A stretch of 64,000 nt of DNA, from assembly GCA_016720935.1 (NCBI GenBank), contig JADKJP010000004.1, positions 203,521 through 267,520 of the forward strand, written 5' to 3'. The notes under the pieces were generated by a model. The model was given only the letters and a program-made list of their open reading frames with translations, ran no database searches and was not told where the DNA came from. This document shows positions 2,588 to 62,019 of the stretch, piece by piece (position 1 is the first letter of the stretch; each line of letters starts with the position of its first letter). The position numbers were made by a program, and so were the translations under genes. The DNA is from Bacteroidota bacterium. Lineage in GTDB: Bacteria; Bacteroidota; Bacteroidia; AKYH767-A; 2013-40CM-41-45.

Positions 2588-3910
2588 TTAGTAACGGTAA
2601 TGTTCAGATTTGAACGGACCACTTTTCTGTACACCGATATAATTTGCCTGCTCATCTGTAAGCTCATCGATTTCCACGCCGATTTTCTTCAGGTGTAAAC
2701 GTGCAACTTTTTCATCCAGATGTTTAGGAAGTGTGTACACTTTGTTTTCGTATTTGCTGTGGTTCTGCCACAATTCAAGCTGAGCCATTGTCTGGTTGGT
2801 GAATGAATTGGACATTACGAAAGAAGGGTGTCCCATCGCGCAACCCAGATTCACCAGACGTCCTTCTGCAAGAACGATGATGTCTTTGCCATCAATGGTA
2901 TATTTATCCACCTGTGGTTTGATAGTGTCTTTTGACGCGCCGTAGTTTTTGTTCAACCAGGCCATATCGATTTCATTATCGAAGTGACCGATGTTACAAA
3001 CCACCGCGTTGTGCTTCATCGCTTTGAAGTGACGATCTTTGATGATGTTATAGTTTCCGGTTGCAGTCACAATGATGTCTGCTTCCTTCACCGCGTCATC
3101 CATCTTTTTCACTTCATAACCTTCCATCGCCGCCTGCAATGCGCAGATCGGATCGATCTCAGTAACGATTACACGTACTTTAGAATCTTTCAAAGACTCA
3201 GCGGAACCTTTACCAACATCACCAAAGCCTGCAACAACTGCAATCTTTCCGGCCATCATCAGGTCAGTAGCACGACGGATCGCGTCAACCAGTGATTCAC
3301 GGCAACCGTATTTATTATCGAATTTGGATTTGGTAACCGAATCGTTGATATTGATCGCGGGAATCGGAAGTGTTCCGTTCTTCACGCGCTCGTGCAAACG
3401 GTGAACACCGGTTGTCGTTTCTTCAGAAAGTCCTTTGATGTTTTGAACGAGCTCAGGATATTTATCGAGAACCATGTTGGTCAGATCACCACCATCGTCA
3501 AGAATCATGTTCAATGGTTTGCGGTCTTCGCCAAAAAAGAGAGTCTGCTCAATACACCAGTCGAATTCCTCCGCGTTCATACCTTTCCAGGCATACACAG
3601 AAACTCCCGCAGCGGCAATCGCGGCAGCAGCATGGTCCTGAGTAGAGAAAATATTGCAGGAAGACCAGGTCACTTCAGCGCCCAGTTCCACGAGAGTTTC
3701 AATCAGGACAGCAGTCTGGATGGTCATATGCAGACAACCGGCAATACGCGCACCTTTCAAAGGTTTTTGTTTGCCATATTCTTCACGAAGAGACATCAGA
3801 CCCGGCATTTCAGCCTCGGCCAGTTTAATCTCTTTACGGCCCCATTCGGCCAGGGAAATGTCTTTTACCTTGTATTTCACGAATTTGTCAACGCTAGTGG
3901 TGTTTGCCAT
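2588..3910 (-). CDS. ahcY: Adenosylhomocysteinase (S-adenosyl-L-homocysteine hydrolase)
   Basis: Full-length match to the AhcY architecture (NAD-binding GFGDVGKG motif, MANTTS...HYRY). The ORF track start at 3991 adds a 27-aa extension; the start at MANTTS (3910) is preferred. Confidence 0.9.
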
Positions 3911-4056
3911 GATTAGAATTAGGTTTTTTGGATAGTCTTGAATTTCAGGCTGCAAAGATAACCAAAGCCTCTCTTTATTCAAAGAAATCATTGGAAATCC
4001 TGGAAAGCCCCGATTTTAGGTATGAAACAAGAATTTGGGGGAAATGTTTTGATTTT

Positions 4057-4098
4057 GGGGGGACGAGGGGCGAGGGACGGTGGGACGGTGGGGCGATG
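4057..4098 (+). repeat. G-rich GGGACGR heptamer array (G-quadruplex-prone)
   Basis: ggggggacgaggggcgagggacggtgggacggtggggcga. The same unit family recurs at 16459 and 51645. Confidence 0.8.
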
Positions 4099-4366
4099 TC
4101 ATTATGTCAAAAGTGGGTCTGCCTGTTTACTCGAGAGGATATTACCAAATTTCCAAAAAGGTCTCTGCGAGATGACAAAGCTTTTACTTATCAATATCGT
4201 CCAGATCCCGCCGAACAAGCCTTGGTTCATTTAACCAAATTGGATTGGCGGGATCTGGACGATAAAATCTCATGCTATGCGCTTGTCATCTCGAAGAGAA
4301 CTTTTAGGTCAGTTGAGACTAAATTGGTTTCTTATCTTAAAAACATTGGGGAAAAGGGGCGGGAGT

Positions 4367-4436
4367 TAGTGGAAGTGGAAGTGGAAGTGGAAGTGGAAGT
4401 TTAAAGTGGAAGTGGAAGTGGAAGTTTAAAGTGAAA
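4367..4436 (+). repeat. (GGAAGT)n hexamer array with higher-order structure [(GGAAGT)n TTTAAAGT]x2
   Basis: GGAAGT repeated 5 times, then TTTAAAGT, then GGAAGT 3 times, then TTTAAAGT. It produces the (VE)n tail of the spurious ORF 3928..4404. Confidence 0.85.
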
Positions 4437-4448
4437 GCAAAAATTGGG

Positions 4449-10575: not shown

Positions 10576-10662
10576 TACCATCAAACTGGGGTGCTCCTGA
10601 TCTACGGGGCTGAGATTATACCCATCGAACCTGTTCAGGGTAATGCCTGCGAAGGGAACGAG
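10576..10662 (+). promoter_or_regulatory. TPP (thiamine pyrophosphate) riboswitch, THI-box
   Basis: ACUGGGGUGCUCCUGAUCUACGGGGCUGAGAUUAUACCCAUCGAACCUGUUCAGGGUAAUGCCUGCGAAGGGAAC matches the THI-box consensus (CUGGGGUGC, GCUGAGA, ACCC, GAACCUG, UAAUGCC.GCG.AGGGAA). It is preceded by a TActTTTG -7 promoter motif and is 65 nt upstream of the TonB-dependent receptor ATG. Confidence 0.85.
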
Positions 10663-10727
10663 GTAAACAAATTATGGCGCGTTCACACCCCATGGTGCGT
10701 GCATTGTTCATCCTTAAATAATAAATC

Positions 10728-13151: not shown

Positions 13152-13159
13152 TTTCGGGA

Positions 13160-15071: not shown

Positions 15072-16400
15072 ATGTCAGGAAATAAAATTACCATGTCGGG
15101 CGGAAAGTTAACGGTTCCCGATCAACCTATTATTCCATTTATTGAAGGCGATGGCACCGGTCCGGATATCTGGCGTGCTTCTGTGCGTGTTTTGGATGCA
15201 GCGGTAGAAAAAGCGTATGCAGGCAAAAAGAAGATTGAATGGAAAGAAGTTCTTGCCGGTGAAAAATCGTTCAAGAAAACAGGAAACTGGTTGCCCGATG
15301 AAACGCTCGACGCATTCAAAGAATATCTCGTTGGTATTAAAGGTCCGCTGACAACTCCTGTTGGCGGAGGTATCCGTTCCCTCAATGTGGCATTACGTCA
15401 GATTCTTGATTTGTACGTTTGTCTGCGTCCCGTGCGTTGGTTTGAAGGTGTTCCTTCTCCGGTGAAAAATCCGGGTGCTGTTGACATGGTTATTTTCCGT
15501 GAGAACACAGAAGATATCTACGCGGGAATTGAATTTGTTGCCGGTTCACCGGAAGCACAAAAGGTTTTGGATTTTATCGCGAAAGAATTTCCGAAAGATT
15601 TCAATAAGATTCGTTTTGGTACAGAAGAAAAAGGCAAAGGCTTTTTACAGGCTGCCGGTTCTTCAGATAGCACAGCGGTTGCCGTTGGAATCGGTATTAA
15701 ACCGGTTTCAAAAATTGGTTCCGAGCGTTTGATCAGCTCAGCGATCGATTACGCGATTCTTCACAAAAAGAAATCGGTGACCATCGTTCACAAAGGCAAT
15801 ATCATGAAATACACTGAAGGTGCATTCCGTGACTGGGGCTATGCTGTCGCTGAAAAGAAATATGGCGACAAGGTTTACACATGGTCGACCTGGGAGAAAA
15901 CTAAAAAAGAAAAAGGTGAAGCTGCAGCTAATGAAGAACAAAAAGCGGCTTTGGCAGCAGGAAGAATTCTTGTGAAAGATTCCATTGCTGACATCACTCT
16001 GCAACAGGTACTCACTCGTCCGGAAGATTTTGATGTGATCGCAACACTCAATCTGAATGGAGATTACCTCAGTGACGCATTGGCTGCACAAGTTGGTGGA
16101 ATCGGTATTGCTCCGGGAGCGAATATCAACTATGTGACCGGACATGCGATCTTCGAAGCTACTCACGGTACAGCGCCAAAATATGCGGATCAGGACAAAG
16201 TAAATCCGGGTTCAGTAATTCTTTCCGGAGCGATGATGCTGGAACACCTCGGATGGATCGAAGCCGCTAACCTTATCTACAAGAGCATGGAAAAAAGCAT
16301 CGCGAAGAAACGTGTTACTTACGATTTCGAACGCCAGATGCAGGGAGCTACACTGCTGAAATGCTCTGAATTCGGAGATGAATTAATCAGCAATATGTAA
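15072..16400 (+). CDS. icd: NADP-dependent isocitrate dehydrogenase
   Basis: Full-length homodimeric IDH architecture ([27 protein letters not shown]). Confidence 0.9.
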
Positions 16401-16423
16401 TTTATCCTTCCTTATTTTTTTAA

Positions 16424-16452
16424 GAGCCTCGCGAATGCGGGGCTTTTTTTTT
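16424..16452 (+). terminator. Rho-independent terminator after icd
   Basis: AGCCTCGC-GAAT-GCGGGGCT stem (one G-U pair) followed by a T-run of 10. Confidence 0.75.
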
Positions 16453-16458
16453 AGAGAC

Positions 16459-16680
16459 AGGGGGCGAGGGACGGGTGACGGGGGATGAACGATTAGGCAG
16501 GAGAGAGAAAATATAACAATGAAATGGCCCATTCAAAAATAAACAATACTCAAGAAGTTTTCTCGAAACCTAATAACCTAATAACTCAATAACTCAATAA
16601 CTTAGTAACTTAATAACTCAATAACAAATCGTCCCCCGCCCCTTCTTCATGAACAACCCGGAACTCAGAACTCGAAACCC
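16459..16680 (+). repeat. Composite repeat element: G-rich GGGACGR block, (YYAATAAC)x7 octamer array, inverted C-rich block, (GAACTCR) heptamers
   Basis: 16461 ggggcgagggacg is inverted-complementary (12 of 13) to 16629 cgtcccccgcccc. The octamer array ctaataac x2, tcaataac x2, ttagtaac, ttaataac, tcaataac spans 16569-16626. gaactcagaactcgaaac (16661-78) is the reverse orientation of the GTTCYGA family. Confidence 0.8.
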
Positions 16681-16736
16681 TACACCATTACCATATTAAC
16701 TGAATTTCCTTATTTTCGCTCAGCCAAAGAAATGAA

Positions 16737-18257
16737 ATGCCGCTGATCGGAGCTCTTATTAAACAGGGATTGAAACTGGGTACACGCGTCAAACTGCGTG
16801 ATTATACTCCTATTCAACACCAGCGTAAGGAATTACGTAAACTCATGCGAAAAGCGGAGCATACCGCTTTTGGCAATCATTACGGTTTTAGCAAGATGCT
16901 TGACTCCCGGAATTTTGTCAGGGCATTCCAGAATGACGTTCCGGTTTTCAATTACAACTCTATTTTTCAGAACTGGTGGCATCGTTGTCTGGCCGAAGAA
17001 GAAAATGTCTGCTGGCCGGGACATGTGAATTATTTCGCCCTGAGTTCAGGCACTTCTGAATCCGCAAGCAAACACATTCCTGTCACCAACGACATGGTGA
17101 AATCCTTGCGCAAAGCAAGCATTCGTCAGATTATCACACTCAGCAAATACGATTTACCGGCTTCTTTTTTTGAAAAAGGAATTCTCTGGCTTGGCGGATC
17201 AACACAACTCAACAGACACGGTGGATATTACGAAGGTGATGTGAGCGGAATTTCCGCCCGACGTGTTCCGATCTGGTTTCAGCAATATTACAAACCCGGA
17301 AAAAAAATTTCCAAGGAGAAAGACTGGAATATCAAACTCGAAGAAATTACCAAGCAGGCCGACAAATGGGATATCGGAATTATTACCGGTGTTCCTTCAT
17401 GGGTTCAGCTGCTGATGGAAAAAGTAATCGAACGTTACAAGTTAAAAAGCATCCACGATATTTGGCCCAATCTCCAGGTAGTCGCTCATGGTGGTGTTTC
17501 TTTCGAGCCATACCGCAGAAGCTTTGAGCGTTTCTTTTCCAAACCTGTACACTTCATCGAAATGTATCCTGCTTCGGAAGGCTTCATCGCGTTCCAGGCA
17601 GAACCGGATGTACGTTACATGAAACTCATCCTGAACAACGGACTGTTTTATGAATTCGTTCCTTTCAACGATGAGAACTTCGACGCGAATGGAGAACTAA
17701 AACAAAACCCTCAGGCATTACTGGTGAATGAAGTAAAAGAAGGTGTTGATTACGCCATTCTAATCAGCACCTGCGCCGGAGCATGGAGATATATGATTGG
17801 TGATGTTGTTCGATTTGTCAACAAAGAGAACTGCGAAATCGTCATTAGCGGAAGAACAAAACATTTCCTCAGTCTGGTTGGCGAACATCTCAGTGTCGAT
17901 AACATGAACAAAGCTGTCGAATATGTCGCGGAACAACTCAATGTTGAAATCCCCGAATTCACTGTCGCCGGAATTCCTTACGAAGGATCTTTTGCCCATC
18001 ACTGGTTTCTTGGTGTGAATGGAAATCTGGACAGAGCCCAGGCCAAACTTTTACTCGATAAAAAACTAAAAGAACTGAACGACGATTACGCCGTTGAACG
18101 TGTCTCTGCATTGAAAGAAGTCATTATCGAAACACTTCCTGCAATTAAGTTCTACAACTACATGAGCAACAACGGCAGGCTCGGCGGACAAAACAAATTC
18201 CCCCGCGTACTCAAAGCTTCGCAGTTGGAGGAGTGGAAGCAATATATTGCTGGCTAG
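16737..18257 (+). CDS. GH3-family (auxin-responsive GH3-like) acyl-adenylate-forming enzyme homologue
   Basis: Length and motifs (YALSSGTSE, FIEMYPASEGF) typical of bacterial GH3 auxin-responsive promoter family proteins. Confidence 0.7.
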   Translation: MPLIGALIKQGLKLGTRVKLRDYTPIQHQRKELRKLMRKAEHTAFGNHYGFSKMLDSRNFVRAFQNDVPVFNYNSIFQNWWHRCLAEEENVCWPGHVNYFALSSGTSESASKHIPVTNDMVKSLRKASIRQIITLSKYDLPASFFEKGILWLGGSTQLNRHGGYYEGDVSGISARRVPIWFQQYYKPGKKISKEKDWNIKLEEITKQADKWDIGIITGVPSWVQLLMEKVIERYKLKSIHDIWPNLQVVAHGGVSFEPYRRSFERFFSKPVHFIEMYPASEGFIAFQAEPDVRYMKLILNNGLFYEFVPFNDENFDANGELKQNPQALLVNEVKEGVDYAILISTCAGAWRYMIGDVVRFVNKENCEIVISGRTKHFLSLVGEHLSVDNMNKAVEYVAEQLNVEIPEFTVAGIPYEGSFAHHWFLGVNGNLDRAQAKLLLDKKLKELNDDYAVERVSALKEVIIETLPAIKFYNYMSNNGRLGGQNKFPRVLKASQLEEWKQYIAG

Positions 18258-18292
18258 TTCCGGGTTCCGGGTTCGAAGTTCAAAGTTTGAGC
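18258..18292 (+). repeat. (GTTCYRR)n heptamer array (GTTCCGG x2, GTTCGAA, GTTCAAA, GTTTGAG)
   Basis: Begins at the first nucleotide after the GH3 stop codon and is nearly identical to the array at 59591-59615. Its first 12 nt (gggttccgggtt) form an inverted repeat with 18343-18354 (aacccggaaccc). Confidence 0.85.
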
Positions 18293-18307
18293 AGATCTCA
18301 ATTCTCC

Positions 18308-18360
18308 CAACCACTAAGCACTAACCACTAACCACTAACCACAAACCCGGAACCCAAAAA
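18308..18360 (+). repeat. (CCACTAA/CTAAGCA)n CA-rich heptamer array ending at the lysE-family ATG
   Basis: ccaacca ctaagca ctaacca ctaacca ctaacca caaaccc ggaaccc aaaaa|ATG. Confidence 0.85.
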
Positions 18361-46174: not shown

Positions 46175-46249
46175 GGGAGCTTAGCTCAGCTGGTTCAGAG
46201 CATCTGCCTTACAAGCAGAGGGTCACAGGTTCGAACCCTGTAGCTCCCA
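46175..46249 (+). tRNA. tRNA-Val (anticodon UAC)
   Basis: GGGAGCTTAGCTCAGCTGGTTCAGAGCATCTGCCTTACAAGCAGAGGGTCACAGGTTCGAACCCTGTAGCTCCCA forms a canonical cloverleaf with anticodon loop CTTACAA. A rho-independent terminator hairpin AAAGCCCACC-ATAA-GGTGGGTTTT follows. Confidence 0.9.
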
Positions 46250-46520
46250 CTTCAAACAAAGCCCACCATAAGGTGGGTTTTGTCGTTTTAAGTAAATTCA
46301 TTTTGTTCACCATCATAAAAGCAACAACAGAGCATCCCGGTTTATAACCGGGAGGGTCACAGGTTCGAACCCTGTAGCTCCCACTTCAAACAAAGCCCAC
46401 CACTTGGTGGGTTTTGTCGTTTTAAGTAAATTCATTTTGTTCACCATCATAAAAGCAACAACAGAGCATCCCGGTTTATAACCGGGAGGGTCACAGGTTC
46501 GAACCCTGTAGCTCCCACTT
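46250..46520 (+). repeat. Tandem ~120-bp units, each carrying a tRNA-Val 3'-half fragment (altered anticodon arm) plus terminator hairpin plus spacer
   Basis: Units at about 46329-46448 and 46464-46520 repeat AGAGCATCCCGGTTTATAACCGGGAGGGTCACAGGTTCGAACCCTGTAGCTCCCAC and the terminator. A 14-bp 5' fragment (gggagcttagctca) lies at 46141-46154. Confidence 0.85.
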
Positions 46521-46637
46521 CAAAACAAAACATTTATCCTTGTAAAAATACACCGCTCATATTATCTTTTAGACCCTGATCAATTTAATTGTGTCCAGAC
46601 GAAAAATAAGGGACAAAACCGAAAAGAGTAGCAGCCC

Positions 46638-59540: not shown

Positions 59541-59636
59541 CTTCTCGGGTTCTGAGTTCTGAGTTCTGAGTTCCGAGTTCTGAGTTCCGAGTTCAAGGTT
59601 CGAAGTTCAATGTTTGAATTGTTCGAGGATCGAGGT
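59541..59636 (+). repeat. (GTTCTGA/GTTCCGA/GTTCGAA/GTTCAAT)n heptamer array, ~13 units
   Basis: ttctcgg gttctga gttctga gttctga gttccga gttctga gttccga gttcaag gttcgaa gttcaat gtttgaa ...; the 3' part is nearly identical to 18272-18292. Confidence 0.9.
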
Positions 59637-61771: not shown

Positions 61772-62019
61772 TTCCCCTGCTTTTGGGTATTTTTTCCTCT
61801 TGAATTCAATGTATTTTAGAGTCTCCTGCGACTCCTGAATCAAAGTAATTTCTTACTTTTGCAGCCGAGTGGAAAGATTTGATTAGCTGCCTGTATCAGT
61901 AGCAATATTGCAACCACGGTAAAAAATGCTAAAGCTGGACTAAAGCTTTTGCACCCGCGATCAAACCCTCCCGATTCCTTGTTTTACAAAAATAGTCTTT
62001 AAAAAACCTACAGAGAACC

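Follow-up and report, generated by a model that had tools for sequence, protein, structure and literature searches.

The 336-nt intergenic spacer between icd and a GH3-family gene, located in a 64-kb window (the whole stretch of DNA that was analysed; 43% G+C) from a bacterium of the phylum Bacteroidota, is in its middle part probably a variable interval filled by slippage-prone short tandem repeats and not a discrete element. The interval would be bounded on the left by the icd intrinsic terminator and on the right by the GH3 promoter block. Its contents would be a GGGRCGR tract in forward orientation, a GGGRCGR tract in reverse, a reversed GTTCYGA tract, an octamer array specific to the locus, and a unique AT-rich core. 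The repeats are of a known kind, namely intergenic simple sequence repeats of the heptamer type, one family of which is predicted to be capable of forming G-quadruplexes (G4).

The comparison set combined a GH3-based scan of species-representative genomes with exact-protein look-ups. At the strain level it comprises 16 contigs: 15 distinct ones obtained by exact protein look-up, and L077, a near-identical metagenome-assembled genome (MAG) with 99% identity over the 195 GH3 residues on its contig. Three sister species, L001, L002, and L003 (91–93% GH3 identity), and more distant relatives were also compared. All 16 strain-level contigs harbor the repeats in the same icd–GH3 context. The octamer is present in seven copies in the window and in 11 contigs, in eight copies in four contigs, and in five copies in L077. 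The C-rich module usually consists of one unit pair but of two in L077 (TCGTCCCCCGACCT TCGTCCCCCGACAC), in which one 14-nt double unit has been gained. The T-run of the terminator ranges from 8 to 10 T across strains, and the sequence of the G-rich block differs in L077 and L082. The original prediction, made from the sequence of the window, had proposed a comparison of related strains. Repeat numbers are indeed polymorphic among them, in both the octamers and the C-rich pairs, and the conservation without repeat-number variation that would have argued for an ordinary regulatory region was not encountered. In the same strains, the spacer between the GH3 gene and the adjacent LysE gene measures 96–113 nt and varies in heptamer steps; the L003-type species and its relative L100, from the Joint Genome Institute (JGI) metagenomes, are exactly four heptamers apart.

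One nanopore-era assembly, L090 (GCA_016721635.1, JADKHU010000011.1), has a G block that is short by 16 nt, shortened homopolymers, and no called GH3 gene. The gap in its G block is probably not a true allele but an error of long-read assembly at runs of G, and it illustrates how difficult these repeats are to assemble.

Among the sister species, the boundaries persist while the interval is exchanged. The icd terminator hairpin is conserved in L001, L002, L003, and L077, and all three sister species retain both the terminator and the promoter block, with the sequence between them replaced. In L003, the interval holds (TTAGTGC)n followed by (TTCACCA)n; in L001, it is a degenerate G-rich sequence followed by a C-rich one; in L002, it contains no arrays. 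This pattern therefore points to local slipped-strand evolution and turnover rather than to an inserted element. The tracts would arise and change by slipped-strand mispairing that adds or removes entire units of 7, 8, or 14 nt, and they would turn over completely between sister species.

The coordinates of the features are collected in Table 1. The spacer is, as originally described, a composite of repeat modules. The description of it as almost entirely structured repeat was overstated, since the modules account for about 140 of the 336 nt (about 40%), positions 16496–16566 are unique, and positions 16693–16736 are a conserved promoter/leader stretch. The G-rich arm of the proposed inverted pair, GGGGCGAGGGACG, was correctly placed at 16461–16473. 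Its C-rich partner is inverted-complementary at 12 of 13 positions, as stated, but lies one nucleotide further along than the 16629–16641 given for it, leaving a gap of 156 nt between the arms. The seven octamer units that had been listed between the arms sit at 16570–16625.

Table 1. Features of the icd–GH3 spacer and its flanking genes (window coordinates).
Feature	Position	Strand	Basis and remarks
icd	15072-16400	+	Pfam label
icd intrinsic terminator	16422-16452	+	Terminator scan; 11-bp stem GAGCCTCGC/GCGGGGCTT, then T9 run
G-rich block	16460-16495	+	Degenerate GGGRCGR-family heptamers
AT-rich core, non-repeated	16496-16566		Alignments; common to L077 and every strain contig, not in sister species
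Octamer array (YYAATAAC)x7	16567-16625	+	Tandem Repeats Finder
C-rich arm CGTCCCCCGCCCC	16630-16642	-	Two GGGRCGR-family units reversed; reverse complement is GGGGCGGGGGACG
Reversed GTTCYGA module GAACTCAGAACTCGAAAC	16661-16678	-	2.5 units
Promoter-like block ATATTAACTGAATTTCCTTATTTTCGC	16693-16719	+	Cross-species conservation
GH3-family gene	16737-18257	+	Pfam label; ATG at 16737

The repeats of the spacer are part of a window-wide repertoire. The window holds 18 non-overlapping arrays with periods of 5–9 nt, essentially all of them in spacers, and at least six short-repeat families coexist there; the array units include GGGACGA, CTAAGCA/AACCACT, GTTCYGA, TATGAGT, and CTAACAA, as well as hexamers. 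A period of 7 characterizes 11 of the 18 arrays and a period of 8 only two, in agreement with the remark that an 8-nt period is unusual here. Read in register, the G block is GGGGCGA GGGACGG GTGACGG GGGATGA ACGATTA, that is, four to five degenerate heptamers. The 13-mer GGGGCGAGGGACG occurs exactly at 4067, 16461, and 51681, and its one-mismatch reverse copy is the C-rich arm; with up to two mismatches allowed, the window yields seven matches against 0.42 expected. Because the 13-mer recurs and the C-rich arm is its one-mismatch reverse, both arms are two units of one GGGRCGR family in opposite orientations. The octamer array (7.4 copies, 88% matches according to Tandem Repeats Finder) is nearly G-free, and within the window its motif is confined to the icd–GH3 spacer (six matches against 0.6 expected). 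The downstream module GAACTCAGAACTCGAAAC is the reverse complement of the GTTCYGA arrays at 59549–59614 and 18257–18274, which confirms its identification as a reversed GTTCYGA module; its AACTCARAAC portion aligns in L001, L003, and L077, a partial conservation at the genus level. In the adjoining GH3–LysE spacer (18258–18360), a perfect 12-nt inverted pair, GGGTTCCGGGTT (18262–18273) and AACCCGGAACCC (18344–18355), encloses an array of AACCACT heptamers, and this array runs right up to the start codon of LysE.

The orientation of such arrays tends to follow a strand-symmetric rule. Read 5′ to 3′ on either strand, G/T-rich arrays stand beside the left-hand gene and C/A-rich arrays beside the right-hand gene; seen from the genes, G and T predominate on the sense strand behind stop codons, and C and A ahead of start codons. 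Across the 37 spacers of the window, the GC skew of the left half minus that of the right half has a mean of +0.20 (Wilcoxon p=0.015), and the effect is strongest in ++, +-, and -- spacers. The arrays in the loci of relatives divide into 24 left/G, 5 left/C, 4 right/G, and 11 right/C (Fisher p=6e-4). When the arrays of the window are read manually against the gene map, nearly every one conforms, with one clear exception, an AGTGGA array at 4368 that adjoins an unannotated hairpin element.

The G/C inverted pair of the icd–GH3 spacer would then be a by-product of one repeat family occurring in both orientations under this rule. The orientation of the tracts may itself be under selection through the sequences that transcription encounters as it leaves or enters a gene. 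Bacteroidota do not use Shine–Dalgarno sequences in translation start, and G-poor sequence before start codons would be tolerated in this phylum. The tracts would serve neither icd nor GH3 in any specific way, and their copy-number changes would represent essentially neutral length variation.

The G block has the further property of G4 potential. Positions 16460–16484 (GGGGGCGAGGGACGGGTGACGGGGG) form a canonical G4 motif with four tracts of at least three G, 8 nt past the T-run. The 64-kb window contains three such motifs, compared with 0.19 in shuffled sequences, and all three fall within GGGRCGR arrays. In an RNA energy model that includes G4, the G block alone reaches −14.0 kcal/mol, versus −1.9 without G4. 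According to the gene map, all three motifs are placed as the polarity rule predicts. The block at 16460 is on the sense strand after the icd stop, and the GGGRCGR blocks at 16630–42, 4057–84, and 51666–90 lie upstream of start codons, on the antisense strand. The four-tract motif is not conserved, as the number of tracts of at least three G falls to three in L077, two in L001, and zero in L002 and L003. On the basis of these predictions, a G-quadruplex may arise from the G block immediately after the icd terminator.

G4-forming heptamer repeats with the same polarity have been described by Rehm et al. (2015), with the units GGGAATC in Xanthomonas and GGGGAYT in Nostoc (of the short tandemly repeated repetitive, or STRR, type) (PMC4692102). 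Those repeats form G4 in vitro, are transcribed, vary extensively among close relatives, and are associated with neither mobile elements nor phase variation (PMC4692102). The repeats of the present window resemble them in several respects: the units are 7 nt long with one tract of at least three G; they are intergenic, mostly between co-oriented genes; they occupy the coding strand shortly after stop codons or the non-coding strand ahead of start codons; they vary extensively in length and sequence between constant flanking genes; they include inverted copies that could form hairpins in place of G4; and they are unlinked to mobile elements or surface-antigen genes. They differ in the unit (GGGRCGR), in the phylum, and in the shortness and degeneracy of the arrays, and G4 formation is predicted here from sequence. 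In addition, the G block lies 60–87 nt from the icd stop, behind a terminator, rather than within 50 nt of the stop, and GGGRCGR is one of at least six coexisting families, most of which are incapable of forming G4.

A second precedent is found in Bacteroidetes themselves. Long simple sequence repeats (LSSRs) are defined by units of 5–11 nt (Mrazek et al. 2007, as summarized in PMC4679880). MacGregor (2015) reported heptamer arrays of multiple families in the spacers of some Bacteroidetes, namely Gramella forsetii, Aequorivita sublithincola, Elizabethkingia anophelis, and Flexibacter litoralis, that are missing from close relatives (PMC4679880). The arrays of the window have the defining traits of this class: units arranged head to tail, intergenic location, a multiplicity of arrays, and copy numbers that differ by whole units. 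They are also alike in the dominance of heptamers, the presence of several arrays per spacer, the “forward” orientation upstream of starts, the shorter array-free spacers of close relatives, and a patchy phylogenetic distribution. In contrast to the tandem TAACTGA repeat of that study, TAACTGA is present in the icd–GH3 spacer as a single copy (16697–16703) inside the promoter block, with no tandem copy and hence not as a TAACTGA direct repeat, and the local array has a period of 8. MacGregor 2015 does not describe a strand-symmetric polarity (PMC4679880).

The alternatives differ in how far they depart from this explanation. One of them, which is unlikely but survives better than the rest, is that the spacer acts as a transcription insulator, and it would add a possible function to the explanation above rather than assign another identity. 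Either the G block would give rise to a G-quadruplex or an R-loop on the non-template strand, or, in read-through RNA, it would adopt a G4 or a hairpin together with its C-rich partner; polymerases that had escaped the icd terminator would in this way be stopped before the GH3 promoter. Antisense transcription leaving GH3 would be stopped likewise by the C-rich arm. The canonical G4 motif behind the terminator, the excess of such motifs in the window over the shuffled expectation, and the energy of the G block in the RNA G4 model are consistent with this proposal, as is a placement that matches the published G4 heptamer repeats (PMC4692102). The strand-symmetric polarity is also what an “outward-facing” insulator would predict. 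Against it stand the absence of the four-tract motif in L077 and in all three sister species, together with the shortened block of L090, and the fact that most G/T-rich arrays after stops in the window (TATGAGT, GTTCYGA) cannot form G4. Moreover, Rehm et al. were unable to establish a regulatory role for the GGGAATC and GGGGAYT repeats (PMC4692102).

A broader proposal, tentative and about as unlikely as the insulator, is that a strand-symmetric heptamer grammar is actively maintained in several Bacteroidota as a functional analogue of the enterobacterial repetitive extragenic palindromic (REP) sequences and bacterial interspersed mosaic elements (BIMEs), with the icd–GH3 spacer as one instance. 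Such a grammar would draw on a small set of dispersed heptamer families, sometimes arranged as mirrored arrays; the G block would back up the icd terminator and the G-poor tracts would shield the promoter side. It could be maintained by a protein recognizing 7-nt repeats on single-stranded nucleic acid, by gene conversion among arrays, or by insulation of transcription units through G4 or R-loops. REP units are imperfect palindromes of ~35 nt that are mobilised by the RAYT transposase. The similarities to REP/BIME are the intergenic location, often after terminators, the mosaics of dispersed short motifs in alternating orientation, and the strain-variable copy number. However, the units of the icd–GH3 spacer are non-palindromic tandem 7–8-mers with no hairpin in the unit.

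It has also been suggested, in the original prediction, that the two arms form a very stable long-range stem. As a functional entity, the arms would pair in RNA or single-stranded DNA with the ~156 nt between them looped out, and the resulting stem would be regulatory. The inverted pair is nominally unusual but not extreme: of 300 shuffled versions of the spacer, 8 contain an inverted repeat of 13 nt with no more than one mismatch, and the pair ranks in the top 7% of left-half versus right-half comparisons across different spacers. The long-range helix of the G and C arms is predicted in both the minimum free energy (MFE) and centroid RNA folds. The stability of the fold, by contrast, is no better than that of shuffled sequences: the z-scores are −1.14 (element as RNA), −1.03 (entire spacer), −0.46 (minus strand), and +0.33 (as DNA), against −6.9 for a true hairpin located in another part of the window. 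The L077 version, which retains pairing potential with altered arms, reaches z = −2.35 (5 of 200 shuffles as good) and is the sole point in favor of a structured RNA; otherwise, the fold is unexceptional, the structure is not conserved at the genus level, and Rfam returns terminators only.

The perfect inverted pair of the GH3–LysE spacer and the long mirrored arrays of distant relatives also speak for a stem, yet several observations make it improbable. Few transcripts should span both arms, as these are preceded by a strong terminator and followed by the GH3 promoter. A loop of 156 nt renders cruciform extrusion in duplex DNA energetically implausible. The C arm can pair in several registers with any GGGRCGR array, and L001, L002, and L003 lack the pairing. 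Strain variants consist of gains or losses of units and of changes at unpaired positions; there are no compensatory substitutions and no pairs informative for covariation. Most other array-bearing spacers are not self-complementary: the large ones at 13152, 25589, 51615, 57922, and 59474 have self-complementarity scores of only 5–7. Complementarity within spacers was considered as a rule of the genome and rejected, with a mean of 7.5 for halves of the same spacer versus 6.7 for halves of different spacers.

The mirrored arrays occur in two distant Bacteroidota, at 3650–3900 and 730–915 in L073 and at 269–470 and 703–790 in L004. In L073, (GGGCAAG)x16, a short loop, and (CTTGCCC)x15 are found directly upstream of the GH3 homologue; in L004, the mirrored arrays have a terminator-like hairpin at their center. 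A second mirrored pair in these distant MAGs consists of nonamer arrays around a palindromic core. The self-complementarity of the L073 and L004 arrays is far above anything in the window.

The right-hand boundary of the interval deserves consideration before a switch at the GH3 promoter is weighed. The ATATTAACTGAATTTCCTTATTTTCGC block is conserved in L001, L003, and L077, and its assignment as a promoter is inferred from the −7 consensus of Bacteroidetes. A −7-like TAnTTTG box is located ~20 nt before the GH3 ATG in L077 and in L001–L012. The window-type strains read TATTTTC at 16710–16717, having lost the G, and this variant is possibly a weakened GH3 promoter. A scan for sigma-70 promoters gave no match; Bacteroidota use a different type of promoter. 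A scan of JGI metagenomes with the promoter-block pattern retrieved L100, the relative of L003, and L101, an unrelated contig (JGI20214J51088_10023867). In the latter, TATTAACTGAATTTCCTTATTTTCGC (26 nt; window 16696–16719) is identical and lies ~20 nt upstream of the start of an open reading frame (ORF), and it may be a promoter module shared between the two.

Given this layout, the octamer array could be imagined as a phase-variable contingency repeat, in which the number of octamers shifts the spacing or helical phase relative to the GH3 promoter and thereby switches GH3. Repeats upstream of promoters are known to switch expression in Haemophilus and Neisseria (PMC4679880), alleles of five, seven, and eight copies do exist, and those of seven and eight co-occur within the same sequencing projects. 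Such switching is nevertheless slightly less credible than the long-range stem. The array ends ~85 nt upstream of the −7-like box, outside the core promoter, and it is not in an ORF, so that it lacks the position of a contingency repeat. Its imperfect units (88% matches) lower slippage rates, and its alleles carry linked single-nucleotide polymorphisms and so mark different strains rather than switching within a clone. Similar arrays, moreover, flank housekeeping genes across the window, an argument that has also been raised against phase variation of the Xanthomonas and Nostoc repeats (PMC4692102).

The least credible alternative is a composite mobile insertion similar to MITEs (miniature inverted-repeat transposable elements), with the 13-nt inverted repeats as its termini: imperfect inverted termini 156 nt apart give a size typical of MITEs, and there is a 9-nt direct repeat (CTCGAAACC) at 16562 and 16671, but the arms are ordinary units of a tandem family that are found elsewhere without the core, the whole unit has no dispersed copies in the sequences searched, no target-site duplication is seen beside the arms, and relatives offer no empty site, since other arrays fill the interval. 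Searches for further copies were negative. Neither the core nor the octamer has a second copy in the 64-kb window, a 27-base pattern from the core gave 0 matches in JGI metagenomes, and blastn against plasmids and phages found none. As a target-site duplication, CTCGAAACC was discarded, because its copies are not positioned beside the arms and it is missing from L077; ~0.2 such 9-nt direct repeats are expected by chance by our own estimate. The suggestion of a composite insertion is not supported, as only one copy is seen and its context is the same in all strain-level contigs.

The reading of the spacer as a slippage-filled variable interval has its own difficulties. Slippage leaves the recurrence of the same heptamer families at many separate loci unaccounted for. 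With automated gene calls, the polarity in the window alone is not significant (Fisher p=0.31), the stronger statement being a manual reading. The rarity of the inverted 13-mer in shuffles and the fold of the L077 spacer may reflect some selection for pairing, and the array/inverted-array pairs of L073 and L004 hint that complementarity may matter in some lineages. Lastly, the functional part of the explanation is one that we infer. These points weigh against the slippage reading, which is still considered the probable one.

No convincing gene is present in the spacer: none of its small ORFs (22–49 codons) is conserved, and a 7-codon mini-ORF (ATG at 16520) is interrupted in L077 by a TGG>TAG change. 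Rfam was searched with the whole window at gathering thresholds and with the spacer at E≤1; the matches in the spacer are sub-threshold and terminator-like only, corresponding to the terminator ends of small RNA and leader models, and the core (16496–16566) has no match.

Elsewhere in the window, Rfam identifies a TPP riboswitch (10577–10674) and a SAM-II riboswitch (61863–61942) above the gathering score; both are ordinary and unrelated to the spacer. The hairpin used above as a yardstick spans 4130–4310, in a spacer (3992–4448) between two minus-strand genes. It is near-perfect, ~170 nt long, and built of nested inverted repeats (e.g., TATCGTCCAGATCCCGCC...GGCGGGATCTGGACGATA). The RNA fold of 4095–4345(-) has an energy of −83.1 kcal/mol (z = −6.9; 0 of 200 shuffles as good). 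Rfam yields only chance microRNA-like matches for it, GGGACGA and AGTGGA arrays lie on its flanks, and it could represent an undescribed palindromic element or a non-coding RNA. At 46218–46529, a 134-nt unit is repeated 2.3 times with 97% identity, each copy comprising the 3′ half of the tRNA-Val(tac) gene (46175–46250) and a downstream hairpin. These repeats look like serial att-type duplications from an integrating element.

Taken by itself, the icd–GH3 locus is an ordinary hypervariable, repeat-filled spacer that is useful as a strain marker (5, 7, or 8 octamers). Repeat-filled spacers of this kind also call for caution, as such regions break short-read assemblies. Of wider interest is the polarity rule, known from Xanthomonas and cyanobacteria, which holds in this uncultured activated-sludge bacterium and in scattered other Bacteroidota. 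An unexplained cross-phylum regularity is thereby extended to a phylum that starts translation without Shine–Dalgarno sequences, and a natural allelic series is available for studying its effects on termination, read-through, and translation.

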